Positions 29,809 through 59,641 are shown, numbered from the stretch's first letter. The stretch: 64,000 bases of DNA from Acidimicrobiales bacterium (GCA_050015175.1 JBEKBX010000005.1:9069-73068), one strand, 5' to 3'. Translations and numbers: made by a program. Notes: generated by a model from the letters alone, not told the origin.

Positions 29809-30568
29809 TCATCTGTCACTTCCGACAAGGACAGGGTCCGGAGCCACCTGTTGCCGGGTGGCGGTGACGGTCTTGTCCGGCTTGGGCGTGCCCATGGACC
29901 TCTCCTCTCCCCGTCGGTTCGCCGGCGAGTGCTGGCTGGTCCCCGCCCCACTGGCGGTACCGGTAGTGGCGATGGTCTCGGCGAGCGAGGCCAGGTTCAA
30001 GGCTGCATTGCGGTCCCGGTCGAGGACAAGACAGCAATGCTCGCAGCGGTAGGTGCGCTGGGCGAGGGGCAGCTTGGCTTTCACTGCCCTGCACTGAGAG
30101 CAGGTTTTCGACGACGGGTACCACCGGCCGGCGACGATCAAGCTGGATCCGGACCAGGTTGTCTTGTAGGCGAGCTGACGGCCAAGCTCGGCAGGGAGGC
30201 GTCGAGGATGGCCCGGTTGAGCCCGGCCCTGCGCCGCTTTGACCTGCCGGCGCGTGGCCTGGTCATAGCGGCCACTGCCAGGTCCTCGAGACGACCGTGA
30301 CGCAGCTTACGGCGAGCCCGGTGGTCAGCTTGTGGAGGCCGTCGGCGCGTGCGTTGGCCACCGTGGCGTGGCGGCGGGCCAGGCGGGCCTTGGTGTGCTT
30401 CCAGCGCTTGGACGGCGGACTGCCTCTGCCGGCCGGGCGTCGGCGCCGGGACAGCTCCCGGTCGAGGCGGGCCTGGCGGCGAGCCCAGTTGTTGAGGTGC
30501 TTCGGGTTGGGGACGGTCCCGTCCGCCTCGGTCACCCCACCCGATTGTCCGACCGCGAGGGTAGGCAA
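29809..30568 (-). pseudogene. IS200/IS605-family TnpB (OrfB) relic: 5-prime truncated, at least 2 frameshifts
   Basis: Pieces in three frames: SKRWKHTKARLARRHATVANARADGLHKLTTGLA (30263..30568); LEDLAVAAMTRPRAGRSKRRRAGLNRAILDAS (third frame); LIVAGRWYPSSKTCSQCRAVKAKLPLAQRTYRCEHCCLVLDRDRNAALNL (29809..30141; Zn-ribbon plus RuvC-III). The N-terminal ~150 aa are absent and no tnpA is present. Confidence 0.75.
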
Positions 30569-30637: not shown

Positions 30638-33220
30638 ATGTCAAGCACCGAGGAAAGTCGCACGCAAAGCCGGTTGCCGGGTCCGGCGCAGCCAACCGGC
30701 GCGCCACCACGTGTGACGCTTACCGTCAACGGGACCGCGCACTCGGTGCCGGCGTCGACTTCACTCCTGTCGGCGCTGCGTGGCGAGTTGGGTCTGACAG
30801 GTGCCAAGCCGGGTTGCGGGGAGGGCACCTGCGGATCCTGCACGGTGCTCGTCGACGGCTGTCCAGTGCGCGCCTGCCAGCAACCGGTCGACGACATCGC
30901 GGGGAAGGCCATCACGACGATCGAAGGACTCTCGAGCGGTGGTTGGCTGCACCCGGTCCAGCAGGCGTTCGTCGAGGTCGGTGCGGCCCAGTGCGGCTAC
31001 TGCACTCCTGGAACGGTCCTCGCCGTGGTCGCTCTTCTGGCCCGCTGCCCCGATCCGGACGACGATGCCGTGCGCGAGGCGCTGTCGGGCAACCTTTGCC
31101 GCTGTGGCGCTTACGGGCGCGTCCGCGAGGCGGTGCGTAAGGCTTCCGAGCTGATCGCGGAGCCAGGCTTCGCCGACGGCTTGCCGGTCGCGGCGACCAC
31201 CGCGGACTGGAAATTGCCCGAGCCAGGCGGGCCCTGTTACAGGCCGGCGCGGCCGTGGGACATGACCGAGCCCACCGACCGCGACTGGTTTGGAATTCTC
31301 GGCGACGGGACGGTCGTGGTGCTACCACCTGCGACGCCGGCAGCGGGCACGTGGTCGACGAGCGGTGGTGCCTGGTTGCACATCGGGACCGATGGGATCG
31401 TCACCGCGTTCACCGGCAAAGTTGACGTGGGCCAGGACAACCGCACCGCGTTGCGTCTCCTTGTCGCCGAGGAGCTTCGCGTCCCCCTCGAGTGCGTCCG
31501 TCTTGCGATGGGGGACACCGATCTGTGTCCCTACGACATGGGGACGTTCGGCAGCCGGTCGATGCCGGACGCCGGGAGCGCGCTCAGCCGGGCCGCCGCG
31601 TTTGCCCGCACCTTGTTGCCGGTGCCCGCAGGGTCACGGAGAATCGAGATCGTGAAGGGCGAGCCCGCGGTGACCCGCCCGTCCGGATGGCAGGTGGCAG
31701 GCTCCCCGCGCACGCCCGCCGGCACCATCGAGGTCGTCACGGGAGCCCTGCAGTTTGCCTCCGACCTGAGCATGCCTGGGCTGTGGCACGGCGCCATGCT
31801 GCGACCGCCTGTGTTCAAGTCCGTGCTCCGTCACCTTGACACGAGCGCACTTGACGGCCGTAGAGACGTGGTGGTCGTGGAAACCCCTGTTGGCGTCGGG
31901 GTCGTGGCCCGTGACAGGGTCGAGGCCCGGACGGCATTGGCTGGTCTGGAGGCAACCTGGGCGCTTCCGGAGGCACCGTCTGACGAGGGCCTCGAGGAGT
32001 TCCTGCGCTCACATCCCGCGACAGGAGAAGACGGCTGGGACGGGCCCTTCCACCAGCAGCAAGGTGACCCCGACGGCGCACTCGAGGCCGCGGCTATACG
32101 TCTTGACGCCACCTATACGACCGCGTTCGTAGCCCCTGCTGCCATCGAGACCCGCGTTGCGATCGCCGTCTGGGACGACGACGACCGCCTGACCATCTGG
32201 ACCGGGACCCAGACCCCCTTCCCGGTCCGGGCCCAGGTCGCCGCGGCCCTCGATCTGGACGAGGCGGATGTGCGTGTCATCGTGCCGCCGACCGGCGGCG
32301 GGTTCGGCGGAAAGCATGCGGGTGGCGTCGCCACCGAGGCGGCGATGCTCGCCCGGGAGATCGGCGCACCGGTTCGTGTCGCCTGGACCCGTCGTGAGGA
32401 GTTCAGCGTCGGCACGTTACGCCCGGCCGCGGTCATCGACGTGCAAGCCGGAGCTACGACCGGTGGCGAGCTGACTGCTTGGACTTTCTCCAACATCAAT
32501 TCGGGACGAGCCGCGATCACGACCCCCTACCGGGTCGCCAACCAGCGGATCGACTATCGCCCTGCCGCGAGCCCGCTCGCTCAGGCCTCCTTCAGGGCTC
32601 TGGCGGCCACGGCCAACAACTTCGCCCGGGAGTCTCACATGGACGAGCTCGCAACCCGGCTCGGTCGAGACCCGGTCGAGTACCGCCTAGCCAACCTGGT
32701 CGACGAAAGGCTCGCTGCGGTGCTGCGGGCTGCTGCGGAGCGTTTCGGGTGGACGACCGACCGGGACAACCCGGGTCGGGGAATCGCGTGCGGACTCGAG
32801 AAGGAGGGGAGGGTTGCCACCGCGGCCCAGGTCAGCCTCGGCCGGGACAACCGCCTTCGGGTCGTCCGCATCGTCACCGCGTACGAGTGCGGCGCCGTCG
32901 TCAACCCGGGAACCGTGGTCAATCAGATCGAAGGCGCCACGGTCATCGCTCTAGGCGGCGCGCTGTTCGAGGCCGTCCACTTCAACGCCGGGCAGATCGC
33001 CAACGGGTCGTTCTCCGCTTATCGCATCCCTCGCACCTCTGACGTGCCGCCGATCGAGGTGGTGCTCCTGGGCCGTCCCGACCTTCCGTCCGCAGGGGCC
33101 GGCGAGACACCGATGATCGCCGTGGCCCCGGCGATCGCCAATGCCGTCTTCGATGCGACGGGGCGCCGCCTGCGTTCGCTGCCTCTGACTGCCGATGGTT
33201 TCTTGAACCTCGAGAGTTGA
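30638..33220 (+). CDS. Xanthine-dehydrogenase-family molybdoenzyme: fused [2Fe-2S] small subunit + IorB-like Moco-binding subunit
   Basis: ATG at 30638 (the track ORF starts upstream over the TnpB relic). N-terminus has GCGEGTCGSCTVLVDGCPVRAC, QCGYCTPG and CRCGAYGRV. The C-terminal part has VDVGQDNRTALRLLVAEEL, GGGFGGKH and AGAGETPMIAVAPAIANAV. Confidence 0.85.
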   Translation: MSSTEESRTQSRLPGPAQPTGAPPRVTLTVNGTAHSVPASTSLLSALRGELGLTGAKPGCGEGTCGSCTVLVDGCPVRACQQPVDDIAGKAITTIEGLSSGGWLHPVQQAFVEVGAAQCGYCTPGTVLAVVALLARCPDPDDDAVREALSGNLCRCGAYGRVREAVRKASELIAEPGFADGLPVAATTADWKLPEPGGPCYRPARPWDMTEPTDRDWFGILGDGTVVVLPPATPAAGTWSTSGGAWLHIGTDGIVTAFTGKVDVGQDNRTALRLLVAEELRVPLECVRLAMGDTDLCPYDMGTFGSRSMPDAGSALSRAAAFARTLLPVPAGSRRIEIVKGEPAVTRPSGWQVAGSPRTPAGTIEVVTGALQFASDLSMPGLWHGAMLRPPVFKSVLRHLDTSALDGRRDVVVVETPVGVGVVARDRVEARTALAGLEATWALPEAPSDEGLEEFLRSHPATGEDGWDGPFHQQQGDPDGALEAAAIRLDATYTTAFVAPAAIETRVAIAVWDDDDRLTIWTGTQTPFPVRAQVAAALDLDEADVRVIVPPTGGGFGGKHAGGVATEAAMLAREIGAPVRVAWTRREEFSVGTLRPAAVIDVQAGATTGGELTAWTFSNINSGRAAITTPYRVANQRIDYRPAASPLAQASFRALAATANNFARESHMDELATRLGRDPVEYRLANLVDERLAAVLRAAAERFGWTTDRDNPGRGIACGLEKEGRVATAAQVSLGRDNRLRVVRIVTAYECGAVVNPGTVVNQIEGATVIALGGALFEAVHFNAGQIANGSFSAYRIPRTSDVPPIEVVLLGRPDLPSAGAGETPMIAVAPAIANAVFDATGRRLRSLPLTADGFLNLES

Positions 33221-37636: not shown

Positions 37637-39256
37637 CTAGTTCGTCTCTTGGTTGCCCTCCGGAGCTCCTACGTTTGTCGGCGATAGTGGCAGGGCGACA
37701 CCCTCGGGAACGAGGGTCGGTGTCGAGCGGTTGAGCGTTTCCCCGCCGAAGAAGGCTGGGCTTGCGAACCGCCAGATCACCGCACAGATGAGACCGACGA
37801 GGCCGCTCAAGAGGAAGATCAGGAACACGCCGCCTATCTCCCAGTGCGGGCCGAACGGCAGCCTCCACGAGGTATAGCTCTGACCGCTCGAGTAGAACCA
37901 GTCCTCTTTCAGACTCCAGGCTCCGGCTGCGTACATGATGAGGCCTCCGAGGCCCGGCAGGATTCCCCTCATGAAAAGGTCCCGAGTACTTCGCGTGAGC
38001 GTCTTTCGGTAGTACCACAGGCACGTCCAACCGGTCAGGCCGTAGTAGAAGGCGATCCAAACGCCGATCGAGGTGATGGCGTCCAAGATCATGTACCCCC
38101 CGGACATGTAGTTCATCGCCGCGTACATCACGATCGAGATACCACCCATCGCCACCGTCGCGACCGTCGGAGTCAGATACTGCTTGTGCATTCGTCCGAA
38201 CGCGTCGGGTATCGCCTTGTAGACGCTCATCGAGAGAACCGTTCGAGCCGTGGGCAGGATCGTCGTTTGCGTGGAAGCGACGGCCGACGAGAACACCATG
38301 AGCAGCAGCAGGTGCGAGAAGGTCGAGCCGATCCAGCTCGATCCGAAGACGGCAGCACCCTGTACCGACAACACGTCGGTCAGGTGCGCGGGGTTTGTCA
38401 GCCCTATGTTCTTCGAGCCGTCACCGGCAAAGGCTTGTGCCGCGATGGTGACGATCCCGTATGTGGCCAGCAGCAACACCGTGGCGATGATCCCGGCCAG
38501 TCCCGGTAGTCGGTCCTTGTCACTCGTCTCCTCGTTCACCGAGAGCGATGTGTCCCAGCCCCAGTAGATGAACAGCATCAGGACGAGGCCGTCTACGAGT
38601 GCCGTAGGAGAGAGGGTGGTTGGGTTGAACCACGACAGGGTCGGCACCATGTGGCCCGGCGGCGCATCATTGATCGCCACCCTGACGAGTGCGACGGCCG
38701 CGTAGACAGCCATCATGATGAGCTCGATCGCCAACAGGACGAACTGGATCTTCGCCGAGATCTCGATGCCGCGGTAGCAGACGTAGGTCAGAACGACGAT
38801 GAAGAGCACGCCGACGAGGAGCACCCAGAAGCTGCTCGGATCGTTTCCGATGCCCTTCGCGTTGAACAGGAGGAATAGATACTGACCGGAGATCTCAGCA
38901 AGGCTCGCCATGCAGAGCACGTCGGAGGCGATGATCCCCCAGCCGCCTGCCCACCCCGTCCTGGGCCCGAAGGCGCGCGTGGCCCAAGTGAAGGTCGTCC
39001 CACAGTCGGGATCCGCCTTGTTGAGCTCGCTGTAGCCGATCGAGATCAGCAACATCGGCACGAAAGCGCCAATCGCGACAAGCGGTGCGTGAAAACCGAC
39101 CGTGACGGCGATAAGCCCGAGAGTCGCAGCAAGGCTGAAGGCGGGGGCAGTTGACGCGGTTCCGATGACCACGCTCGAGACGAGCCCGAGTGCCCCCGAC
39201 TTCAATCCCTTGTCGACCCCTCCCTCAACTGGCATCAAGGCGGGGTCGGCCGACAT
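37637..39256 (-). CDS. APC-superfamily amino acid/polyamine permease
   Basis: 539 aa, about 12-13 TM, with an N-terminal GLVSSVVIGTASTAPAFSL... pattern of APC transporters. The ATG overlaps the gdhA stop by 1 nt (TGATG). Confidence 0.85.
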   Translation of the reverse strand: MSADPALMPVEGGVDKGLKSGALGLVSSVVIGTASTAPAFSLAATLGLIAVTVGFHAPLVAIGAFVPMLLISIGYSELNKADPDCGTTFTWATRAFGPRTGWAGGWGIIASDVLCMASLAEISGQYLFLLFNAKGIGNDPSSFWVLLVGVLFIVVLTYVCYRGIEISAKIQFVLLAIELIMMAVYAAVALVRVAINDAPPGHMVPTLSWFNPTTLSPTALVDGLVLMLFIYWGWDTSLSVNEETSDKDRLPGLAGIIATVLLLATYGIVTIAAQAFAGDGSKNIGLTNPAHLTDVLSVQGAAVFGSSWIGSTFSHLLLLMVFSSAVASTQTTILPTARTVLSMSVYKAIPDAFGRMHKQYLTPTVATVAMGGISIVMYAAMNYMSGGYMILDAITSIGVWIAFYYGLTGWTCLWYYRKTLTRSTRDLFMRGILPGLGGLIMYAAGAWSLKEDWFYSSGQSYTSWRLPFGPHWEIGGVFLIFLLSGLVGLICAVIWRFASPAFFGGETLNRSTPTLVPEGVALPLSPTNVGAPEGNQETN

Positions 39257-40614
39257 CAGACCGTGCTCTCGTCCACCATGGCGTCTGCCACCTTCACGAA
39301 GCCGGCGATGTTGGCACCCAAAACGTAGTCGCCCGGCCTGCCGTAGTCCTCGGCTGCGGCGCGCACGTTGGTATGGATCGCGTGCATGATCTGGCGCAAC
39401 TTGTTATCCACCTGCTCCCGGGTCCATGACAGGTGCTCGATGTCCTGGGTCATCTCCAGGCCGGAGACGGCGACGCCGCCAGCGTTCGCAGCCTTGCCCG
39501 GTCCGTAGAGGAGCTTGGCCTCGAGGAACCGGTCGACTCCCTCGGGCGTCGTCGGCATGTTCGCACCCTCGGCGACCAGCTTGAGCCCGTTGGCCACGAG
39601 ATTGCGCGCATCCACGCCGTTGATCTCGTTCTGGGTCGCGCTCGGGAATGCACACTCTGCCGGGACGGCCCACAGCGGGTTGGAGCCCTCGTTCTTTGCC
39701 GGCGTGAAACTCGCAGTCGGGAAGCGCTCCGCGTACTCGCGGATCCGTCCCCGTCGCACGTTCTTCAACTCCATCACGAAGGCGAGCTTCTCGGTGTCGA
39801 TCCCGTCGGGGTCATGGATGAACCCGTCCGAGTCCGAGAGCGTGAGCGGCTTGGCACCCAGCTCGATGAGCTTCTCGACCGTGTACTGAGCGACGTTGCC
39901 GCTGCCCGAAACGAGGCAGTTCTTGCCCCCGAGGGTCTCCGCGCGCGTCGCGAGCATTTCTTGGGCGAAGTAGACCGCGCCGTAACCGGTCGCTTCCGGA
40001 CGGATCTCCGAGCCTCCCCAGTTGAGGCCCTTGCCGGTGAGCACACCGGTGAACTGGTTCGCGATCCTCTTGTAGTGCCCGAACAGGTAGCCGATCTCCC
40101 GGCCACCGACGCCGATGTCGCCGGCGGGCACATCTGTGAACTGGCCGATGTGACGGTAGAGCTCGGTCATGAAGGCCTGGCAGAAACGACGCACCTCTCC
40201 GTCGCTCTTGCCCTTCGGGTCGAAGTCGGCGCCGCCCTTCGCGCCGCCCATTGGCAAGGTGGTGAGAGAGTTCTTGATGACCTGCTCGAAGGCGAGAAAC
40301 TTGAGCAGTCCCAGATAGACCGACGGGTGGAACCTGAGCCCGCCCTTGTACGGCCCGATGGCGCTGTTCATCTGGACTCGGTAGCCACGGTTGACCTGGA
40401 TCTCGCCGTTGTCGTCGACCCAGCTGACCCGGAACATGATCACCCGCTCCGGCTCGACGAGCCGCTCGAGGACCTTCATCTCCTGGTACTTGGGGTAACG
40501 CTCGACGACGGGCTCCAGGGATGTCAGCACCTCACGCACCGCCTGCAGGAACTCCGGCTCGCCCGAGTTGCGTACCTCAAGGTCGTTCAAGATGTTCTTG
40601 ACGTTGTTGCTCAC
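39256..40614 (-). CDS. gdhA: NADP-specific glutamate dehydrogenase
   Basis: GTG at 40614 with GGGAGG upstream. Near-colinear similarity to E. coli GdhA as I recall it: EFLQAVREV, ERLVEPERVIMFRV, AIGPYKGGLRFHPSV, PMGGAKGGADFDPKGKSDGEV, GKAANAGGVAVSGLEM, GANIAGFVKVADAM. Confidence 0.95.
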   Translation of the reverse strand: MSNNVKNILNDLEVRNSGEPEFLQAVREVLTSLEPVVERYPKYQEMKVLERLVEPERVIMFRVSWVDDNGEIQVNRGYRVQMNSAIGPYKGGLRFHPSVYLGLLKFLAFEQVIKNSLTTLPMGGAKGGADFDPKGKSDGEVRRFCQAFMTELYRHIGQFTDVPAGDIGVGGREIGYLFGHYKRIANQFTGVLTGKGLNWGGSEIRPEATGYGAVYFAQEMLATRAETLGGKNCLVSGSGNVAQYTVEKLIELGAKPLTLSDSDGFIHDPDGIDTEKLAFVMELKNVRRGRIREYAERFPTASFTPAKNEGSNPLWAVPAECAFPSATQNEINGVDARNLVANGLKLVAEGANMPTTPEGVDRFLEAKLLYGPGKAANAGGVAVSGLEMTQDIEHLSWTREQVDNKLRQIMHAIHTNVRAAAEDYGRPGDYVLGANIAGFVKVADAMVDESTV

Positions 40615-40931
40615 TTCAGTTGCCTCCCTGTGCACTCCGTTGTGCACATCTGGCTTCTCGTCTGCTCGGCCATGCCTATCTGCCGCGCTCCTTGCCCTCG
40701 GTGATCGGTCCCAGACCGTTGACATGAGATTCTCGACCCGATGCCGTCCTTCCTGGTCTCGTTGAGGGCTCTTTGTCAATTCTTGCACCGTCTACTGGGC
40801 CTGAATAGGGACTTTCGGCCCATGGAGAAATGTCGCGCCTCCTCTAAACTAACTAGGCGCACCTCTGCAGTTGCATTTCATTGTGCTGACCCTTATTTGT
40901 GTTGCGCGAATTGCCGAGAAAGGACCTTCTC

Positions 40932-42152
40932 ATGCGAGTTCTCGTGGTAGGAGCCGGTGGAGTCGGGAGTGCCTTCGCCCATATAGCAGCGCGCCGAGGC
41001 AGCTTCGAGAAGGTCGTGATGGCCGACTACGACACCGAGCGCGCGAAGAAGGCCGCGTCTGTCTCGGATCGATTTTCAGGCTACAAGGTCGACGCCTCCG
41101 ACGAGGCGGCGATCACCGAGCTGCTCCGCGCCGAGAACTGTGACGTGGTCCTCAATGCCGTCGACCCTCGTTTTGTCATGCCGATCTACCGCGGCGCCCT
41201 CGCAGCCGGCGTCAACTACGTGGACATGGCGATGTCCCTGTCGCGGCCAGACGCCGAGGAGCCGTACTCCAAGACAGGGGTGAAGCTCGGGGACGAGCAG
41301 TTCGAGCTTGCCCCGAAGTGGGAGGAGCGTGGGTTGCTGGCCCTCGCCGGCATGGGCGTCGAGCCCGGGCTGTCCGACGTGTTCGCACGCCACGCGGCGG
41401 ACACTCTCTTCAGTTCGGTTGACGAGTTCGGCGTCAGGGACGGCGCCAACCTCGTCATCGATGGCTACGACTTCTGCCCGAGCTTTTCCATCTGGACGAC
41501 GATCGAGGAATGCCTCAACCCCCCCGTCATCTGGGAGAAGGATCGGGGATGGTTCACCACCGAGCCGTTCAGCGAGCCGGAGACCTTCGTCTTCCCGGCC
41601 GGCATCGGCCCGGTCGAGTGCGTGAACGTGGAGCACGAGGAAGTCCTCCTCATGCCGCGTTGGCTGGATGCGAAGCGAGTCACGTTCAAGTACGGCCTTG
41701 GCGACGACTTCATCGGGGTGTTGAAGACGCTCCACATGCTCGGGCTCGACTCGACGAAGAAGATCTCCGTGGGCGGCGAGAAGGTTTCGCCTCGGGATGT
41801 GGTCGCGGCCTGCCTTCCCGACCCGGCCCTCATCGGCCACCTCATGCACGGCGTCACCTGCGCGGGAACTTGGGTGACGGGCGTCGGCAAGGACGGTTCG
41901 CCGAGGGAGGTATACCTGTACCACGCGGTCGACAACGACTGGTGCATGTCCGTGGACGACTCGCAGGCTGTTGTCTGGCAGACAGCCATCAACCCGATAG
42001 TCGCCATCGAGCTCCTCGACTCGGGAGCGTGGTCGGGCGTCGGCCTGCTCGGTCCGGAAGCGCTTCCGTCAGAGCCGTTCCTAGAGCTGTTGAACGACAG
42101 TGGCGCCCCGTGGGGCCTCGACGAGAGGACGCCTGGGGCGGCTTTGTCATAG
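40932..42152 (+). CDS. Saccharopine dehydrogenase family protein (saccharopine / carboxynorspermidine dehydrogenase-like)
   Basis: ATG at 40932 with GAAAGGA upstream. MRVLVVGAGGVGSAFAHIAARR Rossmann motif, followed by a family-typical length and C-terminal domain. Confidence 0.8.
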   Translation: MRVLVVGAGGVGSAFAHIAARRGSFEKVVMADYDTERAKKAASVSDRFSGYKVDASDEAAITELLRAENCDVVLNAVDPRFVMPIYRGALAAGVNYVDMAMSLSRPDAEEPYSKTGVKLGDEQFELAPKWEERGLLALAGMGVEPGLSDVFARHAADTLFSSVDEFGVRDGANLVIDGYDFCPSFSIWTTIEECLNPPVIWEKDRGWFTTEPFSEPETFVFPAGIGPVECVNVEHEEVLLMPRWLDAKRVTFKYGLGDDFIGVLKTLHMLGLDSTKKISVGGEKVSPRDVVAACLPDPALIGHLMHGVTCAGTWVTGVGKDGSPREVYLYHAVDNDWCMSVDDSQAVVWQTAINPIVAIELLDSGAWSGVGLLGPEALPSEPFLELLNDSGAPWGLDERTPGAALS

Positions 42153-42587: not shown

Positions 42588-43316
42588 ATGAAGCGAATTT
42601 CTGCCTATTCTCGTCCTGAGTCCGTCGGCGAGGCGTTGGCGTTGCTCGAGCGGCCGGGGGCGGTTCTCATCGGCGGCGGCACAAAGCTGCGGGACCGGAG
42701 GTCATCCGAACCGATTTCGGTCGTGGACCTGCAGGCCACCGATCTCGACAGGATCGAGCGGCTCGACACGGGGGTGCTGCGCATCGGCGCGACCGCCACG
42801 TTGCAGCAGCTCGTCGACAGTGAAGAGGTTCCCGCGGTCATTCGGGAGGCCGCCAGACGTGAGCTGCCGAGCACGCTACGGGCGCAGTCCACGCTGGGTG
42901 GCACGATCGTGAGCGCGGACTGGGAGAGCGAGCTCCTTGCTGCGTTGCTCGTTCACGATGCGGTCGTGTCCGTCGCCCGGCCAGAGGGGACCGAGAACAT
43001 GGGGCTGGACGTCATGCTGGCACAGCTCCCGTCTTCGTCCCACGGCATCGTGACTGCTGTCGCCATCGAGACCGGCGGCGCAACATCGGCTGCGCGAACA
43101 GCGCGCACACCGGCTGACAAACCCATAGTCGTGGCGGTGGCTCGCGTGGGGGCCGACGGGCGCAGACGGATCGCCCTCGCCGGGGTGGCGACGACTCCTG
43201 TCCTCGTGGATGAGATCGATGACCTGGATCCGCCTGGCGACTTCCGCGGATCCGGCCAATACCGCCGCGAGCTGGCCCGCGTGCTCGTTTCTCGTGCGAT
43301 CGAGGAGGTGTCCTGA
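42588..43316 (+). CDS. FAD-binding subunit of a xanthine-dehydrogenase-family enzyme (CoxM/XdhB-like)
   Basis: YSRPESVGEALALL...VLIGGGTKL, LRIGATATLQQL, LRAQSTLGGTIV, and C-terminal DFRGSGQYRRELARVLVSRA. Its stop overlaps the next ATG by 1 nt. Confidence 0.8.
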   Translation: MKRISAYSRPESVGEALALLERPGAVLIGGGTKLRDRRSSEPISVVDLQATDLDRIERLDTGVLRIGATATLQQLVDSEEVPAVIREAARRELPSTLRAQSTLGGTIVSADWESELLAALLVHDAVVSVARPEGTENMGLDVMLAQLPSSSHGIVTAVAIETGGATSAARTARTPADKPIVVAVARVGADGRRRIALAGVATTPVLVDEIDDLDPPGDFRGSGQYRRELARVLVSRAIEEVS

Positions 43317-46255
43317 TGAAGTTGAGCATCACACTGAACGGCGTCACGCGTGCTCTTACCTGCGACGCGGGCGATTCGCTGCTTGACGTGCTCCGTCGGG
43401 AGGGATGCTTCAGCGTCCGCTATGGCTCGGAGACCGGCGAGACCGGCGCGGGCGCGGTCCTGCTCGACGGTCGCTTGATCTCGTCCGACGTGCTCCTTGC
43501 GGCCCAGGCAGACGGGCACGCGGTGATCACGGTCGAGTCGCTGAACGTGACCACGGGAGAGATGGACCCCATCCAGGAGGCGTTCGTCGAGACAGGGGCT
43601 CTGCAGTCCGGGTACTCGGCCGGCGCGATGGTGTTGGCCACCAAGGCTCTCCTCGAGCGGCAGCCCGATCCCACTGACGAACAGATTCGCGATGCATTGT
43701 CGGGGATTCTCGACCGTGAGACCGGCTACACCAAGGTCATCGAGGCTGTTCGACGCGCCGCGGCGGTGCGCCGCGGCGAGAAGCCGAACCCGATGGAGCC
43801 CGTCGTTGTCGAGTCCCTGTCCGGCAACCCCGAGCTGGCGGCGACGCTGCGCCCGCTCGCACTTGAGGTTTCGCCCGCCATACCGCGCCTTGTGACCTCA
43901 CCCGATGTTCCACAGACCGCGGTGGTCGGCAAGCCCGAGCACAAGGTGGAGGCTCTGAGGCTCGTCAAGGGCAACGCTGCCTTCGCCGACGACATCGAGC
44001 TTCGCGGGATGCTCTACGCGAAAGTCCTGCGCAGCCCCCATGCCCATGCGCGCATCGTGGCGATAGACGACTCGCAGGCGAGAGCTTTGCCCGGCGTCCA
44101 CGCAGTGCTGCACCACGGCAACATGCCGCGGGTGAAGTACGCCTCTGGCGGCCAGAGCTGGCCGAACCCGCGACCTCACGACGAGGTGAGCTTCGACGAC
44201 AAGGTGCGCTATGTCGGCGACCGAGTCGCAGCCGTCGCTGCTGAGTCGCCGGAGATCGCCGAGGAGGCGTGCCGACTGATCAATGTCACCTACGAGGTCC
44301 TGCCCGCTGTCCTGGATGCCAAGTCGGCGTTGGCGGAGGGCGCGCCTGTCATCCATGACGAGTCAGACACCGTGGGGATCTTTGACGCAGCGCACAACAT
44401 CAGCCATCACATCGGGGGCCAGACGGTCAGCGACGCGGAGATGGAAGCTGCATTCGCGCGGGCCGACCACGTCTTTGAGACGACCTTCGAGGTCCAGCAG
44501 ATGCAGCACACCCCGATCGAGCCCCACGCCACGATCGGCTGGCTCGACGAGGACGAGCGGCTGGTGCTGCGGTCGTCCACGCAGGTGCCCTTCCACATCC
44601 GTCGCATGCTCGCGCCTCTGCTCGGGCTCCCGGTGAAGGCCATTCGCATCATCAAGCCCCGCATAGGAGGCGGCTTCGGCTCCAAGCAGGAGATGGTCAT
44701 CGAGGACATCGTCGGCCACCTCGTGCTCGCGACCCGCCGGCCTGTCCGGCTCGTGCTCAACCGGGAAGAGGAGTTCATCTCGACGCGCACCCGCCACTCG
44801 CAGACGCTCACATACCGGACCGGGGTCACAGACGACGGACATCTCGTGGCGCAGGATCTCCGGGTGTTGTCGAGCACAGGCGCCTACGGCACTCACGGTT
44901 TCACGGTGAATTCGCTCACGGGCGCCCGAGGCCTCTCGCTGTACAACTGCCCGGCCAAGAGGTTCAGTTGCGACGTCGCGTATACGAACCGCCCGGTCGC
45001 GGGCGCGTTCCGCGGCTACGGGGCACCGCAGGCATTCTTCGGGCTCGAGTCCCAGATGGACGACATCGCCCGCGCCCTGCACCTCGATCCCATCGAGTTC
45101 CGGCGCATGAACTGGGTGAAGACCGGCGACGCGCTCGACATATTGCTGCGCCTCGGTGAACGCGGGGGCATTGTGGAGGAGATCGCACCCGAGGACATGC
45201 CGCACGTGACGACCTGCGGCACGGACGAGTGCGTAGCACAGGGGCTGCGCGCGATCGGCTGGCACCGTCGTGAGGACCCGCTGTGGAAACAGCCACCGGA
45301 CCGGCCGCACATCCGGCGCGGGATCGGTCTCGCACTGTGCATGCAAGGGTCGGGCATCCCGTTTGTGGACATGGGGGCGAGCTCGATCAAGATCAACGAC
45401 GACGGGTCGTTCAACCTCCTCGTCGGTGCCGCCGACCTCGGTACGGGTGCAGATACGGTGTTCGCCCAGATCGCGGCGGACGTACTCGGGGTCGCGACCG
45501 AAGACATCGTGGTGTACTCGGGAGACACCGACTTCACGCCGTTCGACAAGGGTGCTTACGCTTCGAGCACTACCTACATCTCCGGTATGGCGGTGAAGAA
45601 GGCGGCCGAGGCCGCGCGGAAGCGGATAGTCGAGCGAGCGACTCGGCTCTTGAGCGTCGACGCCGGCGAGATCGAGCTGCGCGACCGCCGAGCGTGGGCG
45701 GCCGACGGGCAGTCCATATCGATCGGGGACATCGCCTTGAATGCGCTGCACACCGAGGACCAGGAGCAGATCATGGGAACGGCGTCCCACTGGTCGACCG
45801 AGTCTCCGGCCCCCTTCGCGGCGCAGTTGGCCGAGATCGAGGTCGACATCGAGACCGGTCAGATCACGGTCAACAAGCTCGTGATGGCTGTGGACTGCGG
45901 TGTGCCGATCAACCCCGTCACGGCGAGCGGTCAGGTCGAGGGCGGCATGGTCCAGGCGCTCGGGTACGCGCTCACCGAAGAGACGCTCCTCGACGACCTC
46001 GGCCGCCCTGTGAATGCGCGCTTTGGACCCTACTGGATCTTCCGGTCCGATGACACGCCGACCACCGAGGTCTTCCTCGTACAAACGATGGAGACTTCTG
46101 GACCGTTTGGGGCCAAGTCCATCGCCGAGATAGTCATCGATGGAGTCGCTCCTGCGGTTCGCAACGCCGTTCTCGACGCGACGGGAGTGACCATCGATTC
46201 GATCCCGTTCACGCCAGAGCGCGTCTGGCGTGCCCTTCATGCCCAGACGGTGTGA
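43316..46255 (+). CDS. Xanthine-dehydrogenase-family Moco subunit fused to a cysteine-less [2Fe-2S]-like N-terminal module
   Basis: 979-aa uninterrupted ORF. Moco-domain motifs IGGGFGSKQE, AGAFRGYGAPQAFFGLE and GPFGAKSIAEIVIDGVAPAV. The N-terminal 150 aa are colinear with small-subunit ferredoxin domains, but every ligand Cys is substituted (GSETGETGAGAV, QSGYSAGA, DRETGY). Confidence 0.85.
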   Translation: MKLSITLNGVTRALTCDAGDSLLDVLRREGCFSVRYGSETGETGAGAVLLDGRLISSDVLLAAQADGHAVITVESLNVTTGEMDPIQEAFVETGALQSGYSAGAMVLATKALLERQPDPTDEQIRDALSGILDRETGYTKVIEAVRRAAAVRRGEKPNPMEPVVVESLSGNPELAATLRPLALEVSPAIPRLVTSPDVPQTAVVGKPEHKVEALRLVKGNAAFADDIELRGMLYAKVLRSPHAHARIVAIDDSQARALPGVHAVLHHGNMPRVKYASGGQSWPNPRPHDEVSFDDKVRYVGDRVAAVAAESPEIAEEACRLINVTYEVLPAVLDAKSALAEGAPVIHDESDTVGIFDAAHNISHHIGGQTVSDAEMEAAFARADHVFETTFEVQQMQHTPIEPHATIGWLDEDERLVLRSSTQVPFHIRRMLAPLLGLPVKAIRIIKPRIGGGFGSKQEMVIEDIVGHLVLATRRPVRLVLNREEEFISTRTRHSQTLTYRTGVTDDGHLVAQDLRVLSSTGAYGTHGFTVNSLTGARGLSLYNCPAKRFSCDVAYTNRPVAGAFRGYGAPQAFFGLESQMDDIARALHLDPIEFRRMNWVKTGDALDILLRLGERGGIVEEIAPEDMPHVTTCGTDECVAQGLRAIGWHRREDPLWKQPPDRPHIRRGIGLALCMQGSGIPFVDMGASSIKINDDGSFNLLVGAADLGTGADTVFAQIAADVLGVATEDIVVYSGDTDFTPFDKGAYASSTTYISGMAVKKAAEAARKRIVERATRLLSVDAGEIELRDRRAWAADGQSISIGDIALNALHTEDQEQIMGTASHWSTESPAPFAAQLAEIEVDIETGQITVNKLVMAVDCGVPINPVTASGQVEGGMVQALGYALTEETLLDDLGRPVNARFGPYWIFRSDDTPTTEVFLVQTMETSGPFGAKSIAEIVIDGVAPAVRNAVLDATGVTIDSIPFTPERVWRALHAQTV

Positions 46256-46424
46256 TCTTTAGCGCCCAGGGACACGCGAGACAGCAGGTATCGGTGTTCT
46301 CGCTCGTGGCGGCACATGCTCACGCGTTGTGACAGCCGCGGTGACGGCTGAATCCGCCCGCGCTCAAACGAGAATGACCTATCCGACCACAAGTCCAGGG
46401 GGTGCGGGGCGCAGCCCCGTTCGG

Positions 46425-46819
46425 GGAGATCGCGAAGCTCACGGATCGCCGGCGGAGGCACGAAGCTACCGCGGAGCAAACCGTGCTCCAACAATTCGCA
46501 GAGCCACGCCGCGTCGGCGACGTCGGTCTTGCGACCGGGCAGAATCTTCACGTGCCGGGCGTTGACGAGCTTCAGCTCAAAGGAACCCTCTTCGAGCAGA
46601 TACCAGACCGGCTTCCAGTACTGGCCGGTCGCCTCCATCAAGACGTCGGTCACGGCCAGCTCGGCGAGCCAGCCGGCGAGTGCCTCCAGTCCGAATCGGA
46701 ACGCCGAAAAGGTCCGGATCTCCTGTCGGCGTCCCCCGGCTTGTCCGGCACGCGGATGCAAGCGACCACCTCGTTTTTCGAGACGTCGAGCCCGGCGCAG
46801 CGGGCTACCAACAAATCCA
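46425..46819 (-). mobile_element. IS110-family transposase relic (N-terminal DEDD domain only; frameshifted and 3-prime truncated)
   Basis: ATG at 46819: MDLLVARCAGLDVSKNEVVACIRVPD. A frameshift at the C5 run near 46733..46737 follows, then QEIRTFSAFRFGLEALAGWLAELAVTDVLMEATGQYWKPVWYLLEEGSFELKLVNARHVKILPGRKTDVADAAWLCELLEHGLLRGSFVPPPAIRELRDL. Similarity stops there and the C-terminal domain is missing. Confidence 0.75.
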
Positions 46820-52521: not shown

Positions 52522-55443
52522 TTACGCGAGGGCCGATTCGTGAGAGTCGATGGGTTCGCGGACGGGCTTTGGCCGGCGCCGTCGCCTGGGCGTGAACACC
52601 AGGAGAATGAGCGCGAGTACGCCTACACCGCTGGCAATAACCCCAAGTTTCGCGAGCTTGGCAGTGTAGACCCACGTCACCGTGAACTTGCCCGCCGGGA
52701 TCGAGACCGCTTGGAGTATCCCGAGCGGTCTCACGCGCACGGTCACCGACCGGCCCCCACCGGCCGGCGTGAGACGGGCGACCCAGCCCTTGTCGTAGGC
52801 CTCACTTCGGACGAGCACCGCCGGGCTAGGCGTCGAGACTACTGTCTCGGGGTTCTGCCATGGTTCGACGGGTGGGGTCGTCGATCGTGCAAGCGGCAGC
52901 AGCGGGGCAAGCGGTGTGGTGGATCCGGCGCGCTCAACCCAAGAGGCACCGCGAGTGAGCATGTTGGTGAACACAGGCAGGCCGCCGATCTCCGTCTGGT
53001 AGTGCCATTTCGGTGGTTCGAGCACGCCTTGGAGGACCTGGTTGAGAACCAGACGGTGGGTGAGGGGACCGGAGTTGACCGCCGTCGCGTGCACCGTCGT
53101 CACCGCGACGGCACCGACGACGACCGAGGAGCCACTCGGCGCCCCGACCTGGAGTCCGTACACGACCCTTCCGCTCAGCGTGACTTGGGCGTGCGAGCCC
53201 ATGATCGGCACGCCATGGTCGCCGACTACATGGCCATGGGCATTGAGGACGCCAACGGTGACGGTACTGGGCGTCTCTCTCTTGTAGGGCAGCACCACGA
53301 TGGTGACCGACTCGAGTGCTAGCGGGCCGGGAAGCATCCACGTCGACGAACGTCCCGGGGAGAGAAGAAACGGCGGAAGGTGTGGTAGCGGCTTGTCGGG
53401 CGCGATGGCATCCAGCGCTTTCGCCACCTCTTCGGTGCCGGGTGCCACCGGAGTACCGTGCGCGACCGGAATCGGTCGGTTGTCCGGGACCTCCGTGACA
53501 AGGTACTCGGGAAGTGTGACCAGCTCTCTGAGGTTCAGGATGTCGAGGTCCGAACGCGTGAGCGCGACCGGCTGCAGGTTCTCGACGTCGTGGGCGCCGG
53601 TGACCTGCTGGTAGCTGCCGGCGACGGCGGACGAGTAACCCTGGACGCTCGGGATCTGGTGCAGGATGCCGAGACTGAAGGGCCCGAGCGCGAGGATGGT
53701 CCCGCGGAGCCCCGAGGGCATGCTCTGCGCCGGATTGAAGATCGCGTAGCGGCCTTGGGGTCCCAGCAGCTTCTCGAGCTTGCCGACAGAGGCGTTGTTT
53801 CTTGCGATGGTCGTCTTGGCGGGGAATGTGTAGGACCCGTTGAGGACACACATCAACACGTCGGCGATGACGACGATGGTCACTAGCTTGCGACGGCCGC
53901 TAGAGCCGAGACCGGGGGCGCGCCACAGCAGGAGTGCTGCACCGGCAGAGATGACAAGCACGGCCGCAAAGTACGGGCTCAGATCTACGGCGAGCCTCGC
54001 GTGATAACCGGAGACGCCGAAGCCGCGCTGAATCGATCGCCCCAGCACGTAAGCGGCGAGTATGAGCAGCACCACGATGCCTATCGGTATGAGTCCGGCC
54101 AGGCGTTCATTCGGCGTGAGTCCCGGGTCGCCATCCGGTACCCGCTCTGGTGCCGCGCGGCGGGCGACCGTAGGCGACCTGAGCACGTCGACGAACACGG
54201 CGAGCAGCACCGCGAGACCGAAGTCCACTATCACGGCGTTGCGGTTCTGGAGGCGCTGGCCCCCGTAAAGCGGAATGTCGGCCAGAAGGTGGCCGAGCGG
54301 AGTGCTGGCGCCCGCCGAGAGCAGGACGCCCTCGATGATCAGTGCGTACCAGACCCCGAGAGGCCTCTCGCCTGTGCGCCTCCGCATCGCGCGCCTGAAG
54401 AGAGCGAAGGCCGCGACGAGTGGGACGATGCCGACCGCGTAGCTCAGCTCGGGAAGGTTGTAGGAGCCCAGATATCCCGGGAGGCCGAAGGTGCCGTTGC
54501 CGCCTACAAGGAATGGCACGAAAAGCAGTTCCAAGTCGTGCCACGACAACGATCCCGCTGCGAATCGGGTGTAGGTGACGGCCGCCCGTTCGGATTCGTG
54601 CAGGAAGCTGAGGCCTGGCAGCCACTGTGCCGTCGAGAGGAGCACGGCAAGGAGGGCGGCGGCGACGACGCCGACGCTGGCGACTGTGACACGCCTGCCG
54701 GTGCGCCACGCCCGCCAACAGAGAGCAAGGAAGTAGGTGACGACGATGAACGCGACACTGGAGGCAGCGCGAGGATCGCCAGCAAGTACGACGAGCCCAC
54801 CGCAGCCACCAAGCAGTGCGATCCAGCGCCGAGCCGCACGGGGATCGGGATGTGTTCCGAGCTCATGGACGGCAAGCAGCATCCAAGGCGTGAAGCTCAT
54901 GCCCTGCACGAGGCCGATGTGCACGGCCTGGCCGCTCATGAACCCGGCATACGTGAACGTCAAGGCTCCCAGTAGGGCCGCGAGAGGAGAGCAACCGAGA
55001 CGGCGCAGGAACACGTGCATCCCGATGCCGCAGATCACCGGGACCGCAGCGACATTGATCGTCCAAGCCGCGCCCGCCGGCAGGATGGCGAAGAGCCACG
55101 TACCTGGGTACAGCGATCCCGCGTTCCATCCTGCGAGCAGCGGCGTTCCGCTCCAGATGTACGGGTCCCACAACGGCAGCCGGCCGTGCCGCAACAGCTC
55201 GCCCGAGAGCACTCTCAGCGGGTAGTTCTGCGTCAGGTTGTCGGCCGTGCCGCTCCCGGGGAAGAGGGGTCTTCCCACGAGCGCGGGTGGGACTCCCATT
55301 AACAGAGGTATCGCGACGTAGAGCGCGACCGCCCACTTGTCCGCGCGCGCGACATGCGACCAGCGCCGGGGTATCGCTCCGGGAGCTTCGATTCCTTCCC
55401 GGTCCCGCGGACCGAGAGTCACAGTTGAGGGGAAGTGCGCCAT
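52522..55443 (-). CDS. YfhO-family-like large polytopic membrane protein (GT-C type glycosyltransferase candidate)
   Basis: 973 aa. N-terminal DNLTQNYPLRVLSGELLRHGRLPLWDPYIWSGTPLLAGWNAGSLYP resembles the YfhO N-terminal signature. More than 12 TM plus a large C-terminal extracytoplasmic domain and a final TM. Confidence 0.6.
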   Translation of the reverse strand: MAHFPSTVTLGPRDREGIEAPGAIPRRWSHVARADKWAVALYVAIPLLMGVPPALVGRPLFPGSGTADNLTQNYPLRVLSGELLRHGRLPLWDPYIWSGTPLLAGWNAGSLYPGTWLFAILPAGAAWTINVAAVPVICGIGMHVFLRRLGCSPLAALLGALTFTYAGFMSGQAVHIGLVQGMSFTPWMLLAVHELGTHPDPRAARRWIALLGGCGGLVVLAGDPRAASSVAFIVVTYFLALCWRAWRTGRRVTVASVGVVAAALLAVLLSTAQWLPGLSFLHESERAAVTYTRFAAGSLSWHDLELLFVPFLVGGNGTFGLPGYLGSYNLPELSYAVGIVPLVAAFALFRRAMRRRTGERPLGVWYALIIEGVLLSAGASTPLGHLLADIPLYGGQRLQNRNAVIVDFGLAVLLAVFVDVLRSPTVARRAAPERVPDGDPGLTPNERLAGLIPIGIVVLLILAAYVLGRSIQRGFGVSGYHARLAVDLSPYFAAVLVISAGAALLLWRAPGLGSSGRRKLVTIVVIADVLMCVLNGSYTFPAKTTIARNNASVGKLEKLLGPQGRYAIFNPAQSMPSGLRGTILALGPFSLGILHQIPSVQGYSSAVAGSYQQVTGAHDVENLQPVALTRSDLDILNLRELVTLPEYLVTEVPDNRPIPVAHGTPVAPGTEEVAKALDAIAPDKPLPHLPPFLLSPGRSSTWMLPGPLALESVTIVVLPYKRETPSTVTVGVLNAHGHVVGDHGVPIMGSHAQVTLSGRVVYGLQVGAPSGSSVVVGAVAVTTVHATAVNSGPLTHRLVLNQVLQGVLEPPKWHYQTEIGGLPVFTNMLTRGASWVERAGSTTPLAPLLPLARSTTPPVEPWQNPETVVSTPSPAVLVRSEAYDKGWVARLTPAGGGRSVTVRVRPLGILQAVSIPAGKFTVTWVYTAKLAKLGVIASGVGVLALILLVFTPRRRRRPKPVREPIDSHESALA

Positions 55444-57896: not shown

Positions 57897-59405
57897 TTAC
57901 GAGACGGGTACGTCCAGCCGCGCAGACGAGGCCTTTGCCTCCTTGCGGACGCTCGACATGGACAGGACCCAGTAGATAACGCCGGCGACGATCATCCCGA
58001 AGATCCAGCTGAAGTCGGCGCCATGTGTGGCGTTCGAAAGTGGAGACGCGTAGTTCAGTGGGTAGTAGTACGCCGCATCGATCCACATCATTGCTCCGAA
58101 CATGCCTGCCGCCAGAGCGACGAGCGCCTTCCAGTTGAAACCGCCGTTACGCCAGTACAGACCGCCTCGTTTCTCGGCCAGCGAAAGGACGTCATAGCGA
58201 CCACGGCGAAGCAGGTAGTCGACCAAGAGGATCCCGAACCAGGGTCCCAGCCACACCACTATGTAGTCGAGGAAGCCCGACAGGTCTGTGTAGAAGTTGC
58301 CCTTGAAGATCACAAGGGCCGTTACAGCACCGGAGATAACGGTGTCGACGAGCACGCAGCCCCACCTCTTGAGCGGGATCCCGATGGCCTGGAGCGTAAC
58401 TCCGGAGGAGTACATGTCGATGGAGTTGATCGCGAATAGCTGCGGGAGCGCGAGGATCAGGAAAGGCCAGAAGAACCAGCTGGCGAAGGCCGCCGGAACT
58501 GCAGCGGCTGCTGTGACCTTCGGGCTTACGAGATAGGCGGCTGCCCCGAGGAGCTCGAGCAGGATCGACGGGATCGCCCCTCCGAGCGTTGCGGCCCAGA
58601 AAGTCGACGCCTTGGGCGTGTCCCGAGGCAGGTAGCGCGAGTAGTCGGCGGCGTTCTCGGTCCAACCCAACCCACCGGCGGAGACGATGAGCACCACACC
58701 GGTCGTCCAGAGCCACCACGAGGTGTGCTGGTGCAAGCTGGTCACGTGAGCGTGCGGGATGACAAGGATTGCCATCACGATGAACACGACGATGAACACG
58801 TAAGACAGGTATCGCAGAACCTTGGTGATGGTCGCGTGGCCCAGGAAAGGAGCTATGAACTGCACGGCCACAGCACAGATGATCACGACGACCTTTGCGG
58901 CGGTGTCGAGGACCGTTCCTTCCCGGCTGAACATCGCCTCGACGATGAGCACGATTATGACGAGACCTTCGATCTCGAAGCCGACCTGGGTGATCCAGTT
59001 GAATAGGGAAGGGGCACGGTTGCCGTTGCGGCCAAAAGGAGCCCGGCTGACCATGAACGCAGTCGTGCCCGTCTCAGGACCGGGGAGGCTTGCTATCCCG
59101 AGGAACGCGTAGAAGATGTTGCCGATGAGGATCGCCCACACCGCTTGCCAGAACGAGAGCCCGAAAGAGACGATGAGGGCCCCGTAGACAAGGAACTCGA
59201 CGTTCCACATCGCGCCGGCCCACATCCAGAAAAGACCGGCAGGGCGCATCTTCCTGTCCGACTCTGGGATCAGCTCGATGCCGCGCTGCTCCAGTTTGCC
59301 TACCTGGTAGCCCTCGGTGCTCGGAGGAGCATCGAGGGCTAGGCCCCCGCCGCTCGCGCCACCCATCGCAACACCCGCGCCCTCCGCCGGCGTCATATCG
59401 TCCAT
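57897..59405 (-). CDS. NCS1 family permease (purine-cytosine / hydantoin-allantoin type)
   Basis: ATG at 59405 with GAGGAGAGG upstream. RGIELIPESDRKMRPAGLFWMWAGAMWNVEFLVYG and 12 TM, a typical NCS1 N-terminal signature. Confidence 0.85.
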   Translation of the reverse strand: MDDMTPAEGAGVAMGGASGGGLALDAPPSTEGYQVGKLEQRGIELIPESDRKMRPAGLFWMWAGAMWNVEFLVYGALIVSFGLSFWQAVWAILIGNIFYAFLGIASLPGPETGTTAFMVSRAPFGRNGNRAPSLFNWITQVGFEIEGLVIIVLIVEAMFSREGTVLDTAAKVVVIICAVAVQFIAPFLGHATITKVLRYLSYVFIVVFIVMAILVIPHAHVTSLHQHTSWWLWTTGVVLIVSAGGLGWTENAADYSRYLPRDTPKASTFWAATLGGAIPSILLELLGAAAYLVSPKVTAAAAVPAAFASWFFWPFLILALPQLFAINSIDMYSSGVTLQAIGIPLKRWGCVLVDTVISGAVTALVIFKGNFYTDLSGFLDYIVVWLGPWFGILLVDYLLRRGRYDVLSLAEKRGGLYWRNGGFNWKALVALAAGMFGAMMWIDAAYYYPLNYASPLSNATHGADFSWIFGMIVAGVIYWVLSMSSVRKEAKASSARLDVPVS

Positions 59406-59641
59406 AGCCTCTCCTCTTCCTCGACGGTACAGAAGTAGCTCATCCCACAGCACCAACGTAGCGATCTGAAGCCGACGCGACACGGATCATTGCGACCGCG
59501 GGACGTGTTGCCGGGTCCGCTGCAGTTGACGGCCGCATCCTTCTCAGCCTCAGGGTCCGCACGTCTACACGCTAGGGCCGAAAGCTGCTTGAGGAAAGGA
59601 GCGATCACGCGGGCAAGCTCCTGGTCGATCCGCCGCTGAGC

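Follow-up and report, generated by a model that had tools for sequence, protein, structure and literature searches.

A conserved XdhD/YgfM-type gene pair of Acidimicrobiales whose molybdenum subunit has lost the cysteine ligands of both [2Fe-2S] clusters

Textbooks define the xanthine oxidase (XO) family by the chain of cofactors that links the molybdenum cofactor (Moco) through two iron-sulfur (FeS) clusters to flavin adenine dinucleotide (FAD). One member of the family, 4-hydroxybenzoyl-CoA reductase, is a reductive dehydroxylase that runs this electron chain 'backwards'; its alpha, beta and gamma subunits are separate chains, and it carries both [2Fe-2S] clusters as well as an additional [4Fe-4S] cluster, which belongs to the FAD subunit. 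In our study, we analysed a gene pair on the plus strand of a 64,000-nucleotide stretch of DNA from an Acidimicrobiales bacterium (GCA_050015175.1, JBEKBX010000005.1:9069-73068; hereafter the window, counted from its first letter), which encodes a YgfM-like FAD-binding subunit of 242 amino acids (aa; 42588..43316) and an XdhD-like molybdenum subunit of 979 aa (43316..46255), in which a vestigial double [2Fe-2S] module without any of the eight ligand cysteines (Cys) is fused to the Moco domains. By sequence similarity and architecture, the pair is a distant member of the recently characterised XdhD/YgfN-YgfM family and not a new kind of system. An earlier note on this DNA had stated that no Cys-less clade was known to have been described; this stands insofar as the trait is unremarked in the searchable literature, where we found no mention of the missing XdhD ligands (an earlier remark could stand in subscription reviews or in the J. 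Bacteriol. paper of 2000 in which xdhD received its name), but not for the proteins themselves, which are well known and whose Escherichia coli member is equally Cys-less.

It was reported in 2025 that E. coli XdhD, at 10 µM and with 1 mM NADH, produces 2,8-dioxopurine ('yanthine') from urate, NADH being the only reductant added to the assay (PMC12507026). In that work, the tagged protein co-purified with a protein of ~30 kDa that was assumed to be YgfM, the residue E606 was proposed, by modelling, to orient urate, and neither the text nor the supplement ever mentions [2Fe-2S] clusters or cysteines (PMC12507026); the accompanying commentary names YgfM 'the electron-transfer module'. In addition, XdhAC of Clostridium sporogenes has been described as a selenium-dependent 2,8-dioxopurine dehydrogenase (DOPDH) (bioRxiv 10.1101/2025.04.24.650524). 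Like the enzyme that we propose here, it carries out the urate/2,8-dioxopurine reaction of the reductive uricolysis pathway, and it depends on the YqeB/YqeC/SelD selenium trait, the genes for YqeB and YqeC being found next to actinobacterial orthologs of our pair; unlike our pair, it is described as having iron-sulfur binding domains and has no YgfM-type subunit.

The gene pair in the window resembles E. coli XdhD (YgfN, b2881) and YgfM (b2880) in its overlapping stop and start codons, its fusion protein of ~960-980 aa, its FAD subunit of ~240-260 aa with the FAD motifs kept, the absence of all eight ligand Cys (0/8), and a signature glutamate, E615 (codon 45158-45160), which is the equivalent of E606 in E. 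coli. The two open reading frames (ORFs) have the A of a TGATG stop/start overlap in common, and this overlap is preceded by a GAGGAGG Shine-Dalgarno sequence (43303..43318 for the two elements together), an arrangement for translational coupling that was read directly from the DNA. The pair has the XdhD/YgfM architecture, in which one chain of ~950-980 aa joins an FeS-like module to the Moco part and is preceded by a short, coupled FAD-subunit gene; both subunits are colinear with their E. coli counterparts (36% identity over the full length for the large subunit, 34% for the FAD subunit), and their top NCBIfam models are TIGR03313 and TIGR03312, respectively. In an alignment of 70 full-length proteins, Q458, Y568, E615, D744, Y748, and E938 are common to the actinobacterial, Chloroflexota, and gammaproteobacterial groups and to one further protein, P0203; in the remaining fused FeS-Moco proteins, these signature positions vary. 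The pair differs from that of E. coli in the residues that replace the ligands (STAD/SSDE in actinobacteria, DADS/SNSD in E. coli) and in its gene clusters, as those of actinobacteria carry LLM-class F420 oxidoreductases where E. coli has YgfK; the association with SsnA, YqeB, and YqeC is found in E. coli and in actinobacterial relatives alike, the pathway genes not being adjacent to the pair in the window.

With regard to the wider XO family of molybdenum hydroxylases, the pair has the Moco domains with their GGGFG, RGxG, and C-terminal Glu motifs, as well as the FAD_binding_5 domain. The closest solved sequence to the Moco part is the alpha subunit of 4-hydroxybenzoyl-CoA reductase (E=1.8e-104), and the Thauera aromatica structures of that enzyme (1RM6/1SB3) occupy ranks 3-4 in a Foldseek search, behind two MOP entries. 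Unlike it, our protein lacks every ligand Cys of the module and its FAD subunit contains no Cys at all, and the corresponding model, TIGR03194, gives 549 bits, below its cut-off of 994.6. Desulfovibrio gigas MOP (1SIJ/1VLB; 25% identity) is likewise a single-chain fusion of FeS module and Moco part, and is unlike our protein in binding both [2Fe-2S] clusters, lacking an FAD subunit and acting on another substrate.

Special attention was given to the positions of the cluster ligands. Pfam identifies in the 979-aa protein the domains Fer2_2 (residues 72-146, E=3.7e-19), Ald_Xan_dh_C (2e-29), MoCoBD_1 (1.3e-76), and MoCoBD_2 (6.3e-73), and gives no match to Fer2. When residues 1-170 were aligned with phmmer to four solved small subunits, namely 3HRD_D (nicotinate dehydrogenase), 8UEM_C (mycobacterial carbon monoxide dehydrogenase), 4ZOH_C, and 5Y6Q_A, both ligand regions aligned without gaps to all of them. 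In the vestigial plant-ferredoxin-like domain (residues 1-71; 43316..43528), the Cys columns of the N-terminal cluster are occupied by S38 (codon 43427-43429), T43, G46, and D58 (43487-43489), and in the vestigial helical Fer2_2 domain (residues 72-150; 43529..43765) those of the second cluster are occupied by S98, S101, D133, and E135 (43718-43720), so that all 8 of the 8 columns are non-Cys and the family trait of two four-Cys [2Fe-2S] clusters is absent. Since the alignments are free of gaps and the glycine framework of the loops (G37, G41, G44, G99, and G137) is invariant across 71 relatives, we rejected a register error. The same profile alignment places Cys at 8/8 columns of an intact paralog in the window (30638..33220), which reads CCCCCCCC. 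This paralog, on the plus strand, fuses its double [2Fe-2S] module to an IorB-like rearranged Moco domain, where the MoCoBD_2 stretch comes before MoCoBD_1, and its ORF start at 30332 is probably too long at the N-terminus, the likely start being M103.

The sole Cys of the module are C16 (43361-43363) and C31 (43406-43408), neither of them in a ligand column. Both are invariant in the actinobacterial Cys-less clade (21/21 sampled) and absent from the Chloroflexota clade, and C16 alone recurs in 12/19 gammaproteobacterial sequences. The Cys conserved in the actinobacterial clade over the whole protein are those at positions 16, 31, 319, 545, 634, 639, 675, and 861; we considered and rejected a new cluster site built on Cys in another part of the chain, C545 and C634 being also present in relatives with eight Cys and no common CxxC-type motif being found. 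Judged by its ligand residues, the 979-aa protein cannot assemble the canonical relay. The observations of the earlier note are thus confirmed as to the replacement of all eight Cys, the two Cys that remain, the intact paralog, the uninterrupted 979-aa frame with its TGATG-coupled FAD subunit, and the impossibility of a Moco-FeS-FeS-FAD chain. The same is true of the Moco motifs that it had listed in the catalytic part (residues 206-979; 43931..46252): IGGGFGSKQE (GGGFGSKQE at 451-459), AFRGYGAPQ (FRGYG at 565-569), and AKSIAE, which contains the catalytic E938 (46127-46129), are all present, and K457, Q458, E459, R566, Y568, and E938 are invariant across the 71 relatives.

These substitutions are maintained far beyond a single genome. 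Among the 120 best database homologs (70-100% identity), which span Acidimicrobiales, Nocardioides, Gaiellaceae, and Intrasporangium, the same eight substitutions are found in 119-120, and the near-invariant replacements in actinobacteria are S/T/A/D in the N-terminal cluster and S/S/D/E in Fer2_2. The primary ortholog is also Cys-less in all of 74 genome loci, which, added to the 120 homologs, brings the Cys-less actinobacterial orthologs to >190. When eight orthologs of 85-93% identity were compared with our gene by the Nei-Gojobori method, the ratio of nonsynonymous to synonymous substitution rates (dN/dS) was 0.08-0.14 over residues 1-165, versus 0.07-0.12 for the Moco part, and no stop codons were found in the 12 orthologs checked. 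The identity of the two vestigial domains within the clade is 0.71 and 0.79, compared with 0.68 and 0.80 in the sister clade that keeps eight Cys. An AlphaFold2 model built from a 71-sequence alignment has a predicted local distance difference test score (pLDDT) of 85.9 overall and of 80-95 in the module, with a predicted template-modelling score of 0.88; the pLDDT falls to 73-82 exactly at the loops that correspond to the former clusters. As a whole chain, the best Foldseek match is MOP 1SIJ (template-modelling score 0.78/0.84), and in the catalytic part G451, G452, F454, K457, R566, G567, and E938 are invariant in the 71 relatives. The conservation, the dN/dS values, the intact frames, and the model lead us to conclude that the module is a conserved, folded domain predicted to bind no cluster. 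Decay to a pseudogene was rejected on the grounds that >190 orthologs have the same pattern, that dN/dS is 0.08-0.14, and that the domain identity equals that of the eight-Cys sister clade. A conserved Cys-less clade under purifying selection, which the earlier note had raised as a possibility, is therefore supported by the 120 homologs, the 74 loci, and the dN/dS values, whereas its option of a pseudo-enzyme or scaffold is disfavoured by the invariant active-site signature, a dN/dS of ~0.08, and the activity of the E. coli ortholog.

The same loss is found in the gammaproteobacteria. E. coli K-12 XdhD reads NSDDGFGFAGSDA...NAS, QSGYNDPA, and SRDAGW at the equivalent positions, with no ligand Cys, and 120 of its 120 gammaproteobacterial relatives (down to 74% identity) lack all eight, with the pattern DADS/SNSD; most of these modules have 0-1 Cys within the first 160 residues. 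The proteins are named 'Mo/Fe-S-binding subunit' at NCBI, an Fe-S-binding annotation that is probably wrong for XdhD proteins.

The FAD subunit, in contrast to the module, has kept the motifs of its cofactor site. The 242-aa protein matches FAD_binding_5 with E=5.9e-19 (68.9 bits, cut-off 27) and CO_deh_flav_C only partially (25.2 bits, cut-off 25.5); it has zero Cys and retains the FAD motifs GGT (residues 29-31) and TLGG (102-105). Both GGT and TxGG are retained by 43 actinobacterial orthologs and by E. coli YgfM, so the FAD site of this YgfM-like subunit appears to be still intact and is predicted to bind FAD. With a dN/dS of 0.23-0.26, the subunit is under purifying selection.

To place these losses within the family, residues 1-165 were searched against 1.84 billion representatives, and the ligand patterns were scored in the 150 best matches. 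Of these, 94 have eight Cys, ~30 are zero-Cys proteins of the actinobacterial type, many of them fragments, and three (P0199, P0202, and P0205) are zero-Cys proteins of the E. coli type. Another ~10 have lost the N-terminal cluster and kept the Fer2_2 cluster (D[ST]DG+CCCC), including the full-length P0203, which is an FeS-I-only intermediate; a profile search aimed at more members of this kind returned gammaproteobacterial XdhD only. Two metagenomic fragments of ~200 aa, P0130 and P0140, keep the N-terminal CCCC and have SSDE/SESE in Fer2_2; these could be true FeS-II-only forms or else chimeras created by assembly.

The closest clade to our protein consists of uncharacterised XdhD-like proteins of Chloroflexota (P0167, P0322, and P0388; 53-56% identity), which have the same fusion architecture, overlapping upstream small-subunit gene, and active-site signature, but keep all eight Cys and have a small subunit without its first ~60 residues and GG motifs. 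P0167 is 54% identical to our protein, in comparison with 36% for E. coli XdhD, and its Chloroflexota/Anaerolineae family has eight Cys in 120/120 members. In neighbour-joining trees restricted to the Moco part (731 and 747 columns; 200 bootstraps; distance trees only, from Kimura distances), the actinobacterial group joins the eight-Cys Chloroflexota with 99-100% support and the gammaproteobacterial group joins P0203 with 74-78%, whereas a union of the actinobacterial and gammaproteobacterial groups receives 0%. Because the actinobacterial group has an eight-Cys sister clade and eight-Cys outgroups, the parsimonious reading of these sequences is that both clusters were lost completely at least twice and independently, with a stepwise route in the gammaproteobacterial lineage. 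The cluster-less state would then be the normal, selected condition of a large actinobacterial clade, with an independent origin in gammaproteobacterial XdhD.

The Chloroflexota apparently present the reciprocal pattern, as their sequences keep the FeS ligands and have lost the FAD site, while the Cys-less clades keep the FAD motifs. In the Chloroflexota small subunits at L084:9253-10011 and L085:9309-10004, CO_deh_flav_C is the only domain found, without FAD_binding_5 or the GGT/TxGG motifs, and in some members (the N-termini of P0308 and P0311) the small subunit is fused to the large one in chains of 1165-1270 aa. Both Cys-less clades also differ from their cluster-containing relatives by the changes K35R, T102 to A/D, D269N, P495 to A/V, and R863 to V/T, and both have gained C861 (DCG[VT]P versus D[AV]GR), all at positions where the cluster-containing relatives are uniformly conserved; these convergent positions may once have contacted FeS I or the pterin.

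The genomic context of the relatives bears on the substrate. Genes were called crudely in 80 related loci and then clustered, and the following counts come from 74 of these loci. The YgfM-like gene recurs at position -1, and the neighbours include SsnA and LLM-F420 proteins (34 each), YqeB and an XdhC-like maturation factor (25 each), and YqeC (15), together with RidA and an NCS1 nucleobase transporter. The assignments were scored at 399 bits for SsnA (NF005540, just under its cut-off of 444), 308 for YqeB (220), and 162 for YqeC (73). As identified from sequence, this is the gene set of reductive uricolysis and the selenium cofactor in its F420 variant, and the relatives that have such a purine-type context are 62-77% identical to our protein. 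An F420-variant cluster has been reported for Chloroflexota (PMC12507026). In the window itself, an NCS1 nucleobase/cation symporter (57897..59483, minus strand; Transp_cyt_pur E=1.2e-49) is located 11.6 kb downstream of the pair; it is 73-80% identical to the NCS1 proteins that adjoin XdhD/SsnA in L009 and L013, and is possibly linked in function to the pair.

Taking these results together, we consider it probable, though well short of certain, that the pair encodes a functional two-subunit XdhD/YgfM molybdenum enzyme with a cluster-less adaptor module and relay-less electron transfer from FAD to Moco. By analogy with the E. coli enzyme, its substrate would be urate/2,8-dioxopurine, and it would catalyse the first step of reductive uricolysis, in which urate loses its 6-oxo group and becomes 2,8-dioxopurine. 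The vestigial module would keep its fold and loop geometry, bind neither cluster, and serve as the adaptor that connects the FAD subunit to the Moco domains. Reducing equivalents would enter at the YgfM-like FAD site, as NADH may do in the E. coli enzyme, and, in what is the least certain step of this scheme, the electrons would reach the pterin and molybdenum without an FeS relay. If the canonical geometry is preserved, the electrons would have to tunnel slowly, in one long step, across the empty module; if it is not, the arrangement of FAD and Moco would have been remodelled. We therefore favour relay-less transfer, either slow or within a remodelled complex, as a proposal to be held loosely.

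It is important to consider the points that weigh against this proposal. In bovine xanthine dehydrogenase, the hops are ~14.7 Å from Mo to FeS I, 12.4 Å from FeS I to FeS II, and 7.8 Å from FeS II to FAD, and physiological tunnelling is usually within ~14 Å. By these distances, a direct gap between FAD and Moco would be well over 20 Å, which on the Moser-Dutton ruler corresponds to a rate of about 1 s-1 or less; such a rate would nevertheless suffice for the product seen in the published end-point assay. To our knowledge, there is no case of relay-free transfer from FAD to Moco in the XO family. The E. coli assay was an end-point measurement by liquid chromatography-mass spectrometry, with no rate, metal analysis, or spectra given (PMC12507026), and therefore does not demonstrate a competent FAD-to-Mo transfer, and NAD(P)H is not used by the clostridial DOPDH, for which methyl viologen served in the assays (bioRxiv 10.1101/2025.04.24.650524). 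The FAD subunit evolves ~3x faster than the molybdenum subunit. As for family membership, the scores against the top models are below the curated cut-offs, with 686.4 bits for TIGR03313 (cut-off 1101.9) and 96.3 bits for TIGR03312 (241.5). Finally, in the window and in the seven closest loci, the pair is not adjacent to SsnA, YqeB, or YqeC, and the substrate assignment thus rests on more distant synteny.

A different explanation, which we consider unlikely, is that no intramolecular relay is needed and that the molybdenum is reduced and re-oxidised within the substrate funnel by a second small substrate or a diffusible reductant, for example in a ping-pong cycle of the 'transhydroxylase' type between purines or by a free reduced flavin or mediator, the FAD subunit being structural or making the mediator. 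The losses of the clusters on at least two independent occasions and one at a time, as in P0203 and the possible FeS-II-only fragments, suggest a dispensable relay, and the truncated FAD domain of the Chloroflexota sister clade indicates that neither module is universally required; repeated loss of either module would be equally expected if the molybdenum were serviced directly at the active site. The turnover of the clostridial enzyme with methyl viologen and the absence of a rate for the E. coli reaction fit this explanation as well. It is difficult to reconcile, however, with the conservation of the FAD motifs in both Cys-less clades, with the purifying selection on the FAD subunit, and with NADH as the sole reductant added to the E. 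coli reaction. Moreover, an E. coli xdhA mutant left xanthine unconsumed (PMC12507026), which argues against xanthine as the direct reductant of XdhD. The suggestion of the earlier note that this could be a non-redox or O2-direct molybdenum enzyme found no support.

We regard as improbable that carriers are supplied in trans, that is, that an external FeS protein such as a ferredoxin, YgfK in E. coli, or a neighbouring eight-Cys paralog feeds the Moco side. The FeS flavoprotein YgfK is encoded in the same operon in E. coli, the clostridial enzyme has no known physiological donor, and three loci contain an FeS-Moco paralog of the eight-Cys type (L013, L015, and L011). In these loci, a second fused FeS-Moco protein is encoded at 13025-15679 of L013 (directly downstream of the Cys-less one), 3586-6192 of L015, and 19774-22809 of L011, with 7 or 8 ligand Cys (SCCCCCCC in L011). 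Such nearby paralogs, however, fall on a remote branch of the tree, neither a ferredoxin-like nor any other FeS protein recurs as a neighbour in the 74 actinobacterial loci, and in the model the vestigial module is predicted still to fill the docking place of the small subunit.

It is very improbable that the module binds metal through its Ser, Thr, Asp, and Glu residues or through C16 and C31. The replacements are largely polar oxygen donors, and each clade strongly conserves its own set (S/T/A/D and S/S/D/E; D/A/D/S and S/N/S/D), and C16 and C31 are both invariant, although in the actinobacterial clade only. Nevertheless, the two Cys-less clades have different replacements, Ala and Gly among them, the first 160 residues of most gammaproteobacterial modules contain just 0-1 Cys, and we know of no precedent for a [2Fe-2S] cluster with all-oxygen ligation. 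An artefact, a register error, a decaying gene, or a pseudo-enzyme, which the missing Cys and the IS110 transposase fragment immediately downstream might suggest, has next to no chance of being the explanation given the gap-free alignments, the identical protein on 17 contigs, the >190 orthologs, the dN/dS of ~0.08, the invariant catalytic residues, and the activity of the E. coli ortholog (PMC12507026).

The surroundings of the pair in the window, which is high-GC DNA (~64%), were also examined. Identical copies of the 979-aa protein are present on 17 public contigs labelled Acidimicrobiales, from metagenome-assembled genomes. Upstream of the pair are a saccharopine-dehydrogenase-like gene (40899-42152, plus strand), a glutamate dehydrogenase gene (39256-40788, minus strand), and an amino-acid permease gene (37637-39256, minus strand); the first two are kept upstream in 6 of the 7 closest loci, unlike the purine context of the more distant relatives. 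Unrelated genes occupy the other side of the pair in the window and the seven closest relatives. In the window, this side begins with a truncated IS110-family transposase of 174 aa (46237-46761, minus strand) with the DEDD_Tnp_IS110 domain only, whose ORF overlaps the final 19 nt of the xdhD-like gene. No counterpart of this fragment was called in L002, L003, L004, L007, L008, and L012, where a 189-aa gene comes directly after the pair, and L006 has an unclassified gene call where the 189-aa gene would be. Neither YqeB nor YqeC was found in the 64,000 nt, and Rfam at gathering thresholds identified no riboswitch or other RNA in the 436-bp gap upstream of the pair or elsewhere in the window. 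A 973-aa ORF at 52522-55443 (minus strand) appears coding-like by its GC content at third codon positions (0.79) and has no Pfam match at E<=1e-4.

For the family as a whole, these results describe an entire conserved branch without the two middle stations of the relay, which includes the E. coli K-12 enzyme newly tied to a function of medical relevance, the removal of urate in the gut. Three observations appear to be unrecorded in the searchable literature: that two large branches of XdhD lack the [2Fe-2S] ligands, that this loss is recurrent, and that the sister clade has apparently lost the FAD site instead. It is possible, and we propose it only tentatively from these sequences, that XdhD-type enzymes, including that of E. 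coli K-12, form a class of molybdenum hydroxylases without an internal FeS relay, which was discarded repeatedly, and whose molybdenum is served by a mechanism undescribed for the XO family, either direct transfer from FAD to the pterin in a remodelled complex or reduction by a second substrate or mediator at the active site. If confirmed biochemically, the finding would correct the annotation of thousands of proteins. It would also pose the testable question of how a buried molybdenum centre is reduced, and would offer a natural series of eight-Cys, FeS-I-only, zero-Cys, and FAD-less enzymes in which electron transfer could be dissected. In the engineering of urate-degrading probiotics, the supply of electrons to XdhD may limit flux, and the puzzle can be tested directly in E. 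coli.

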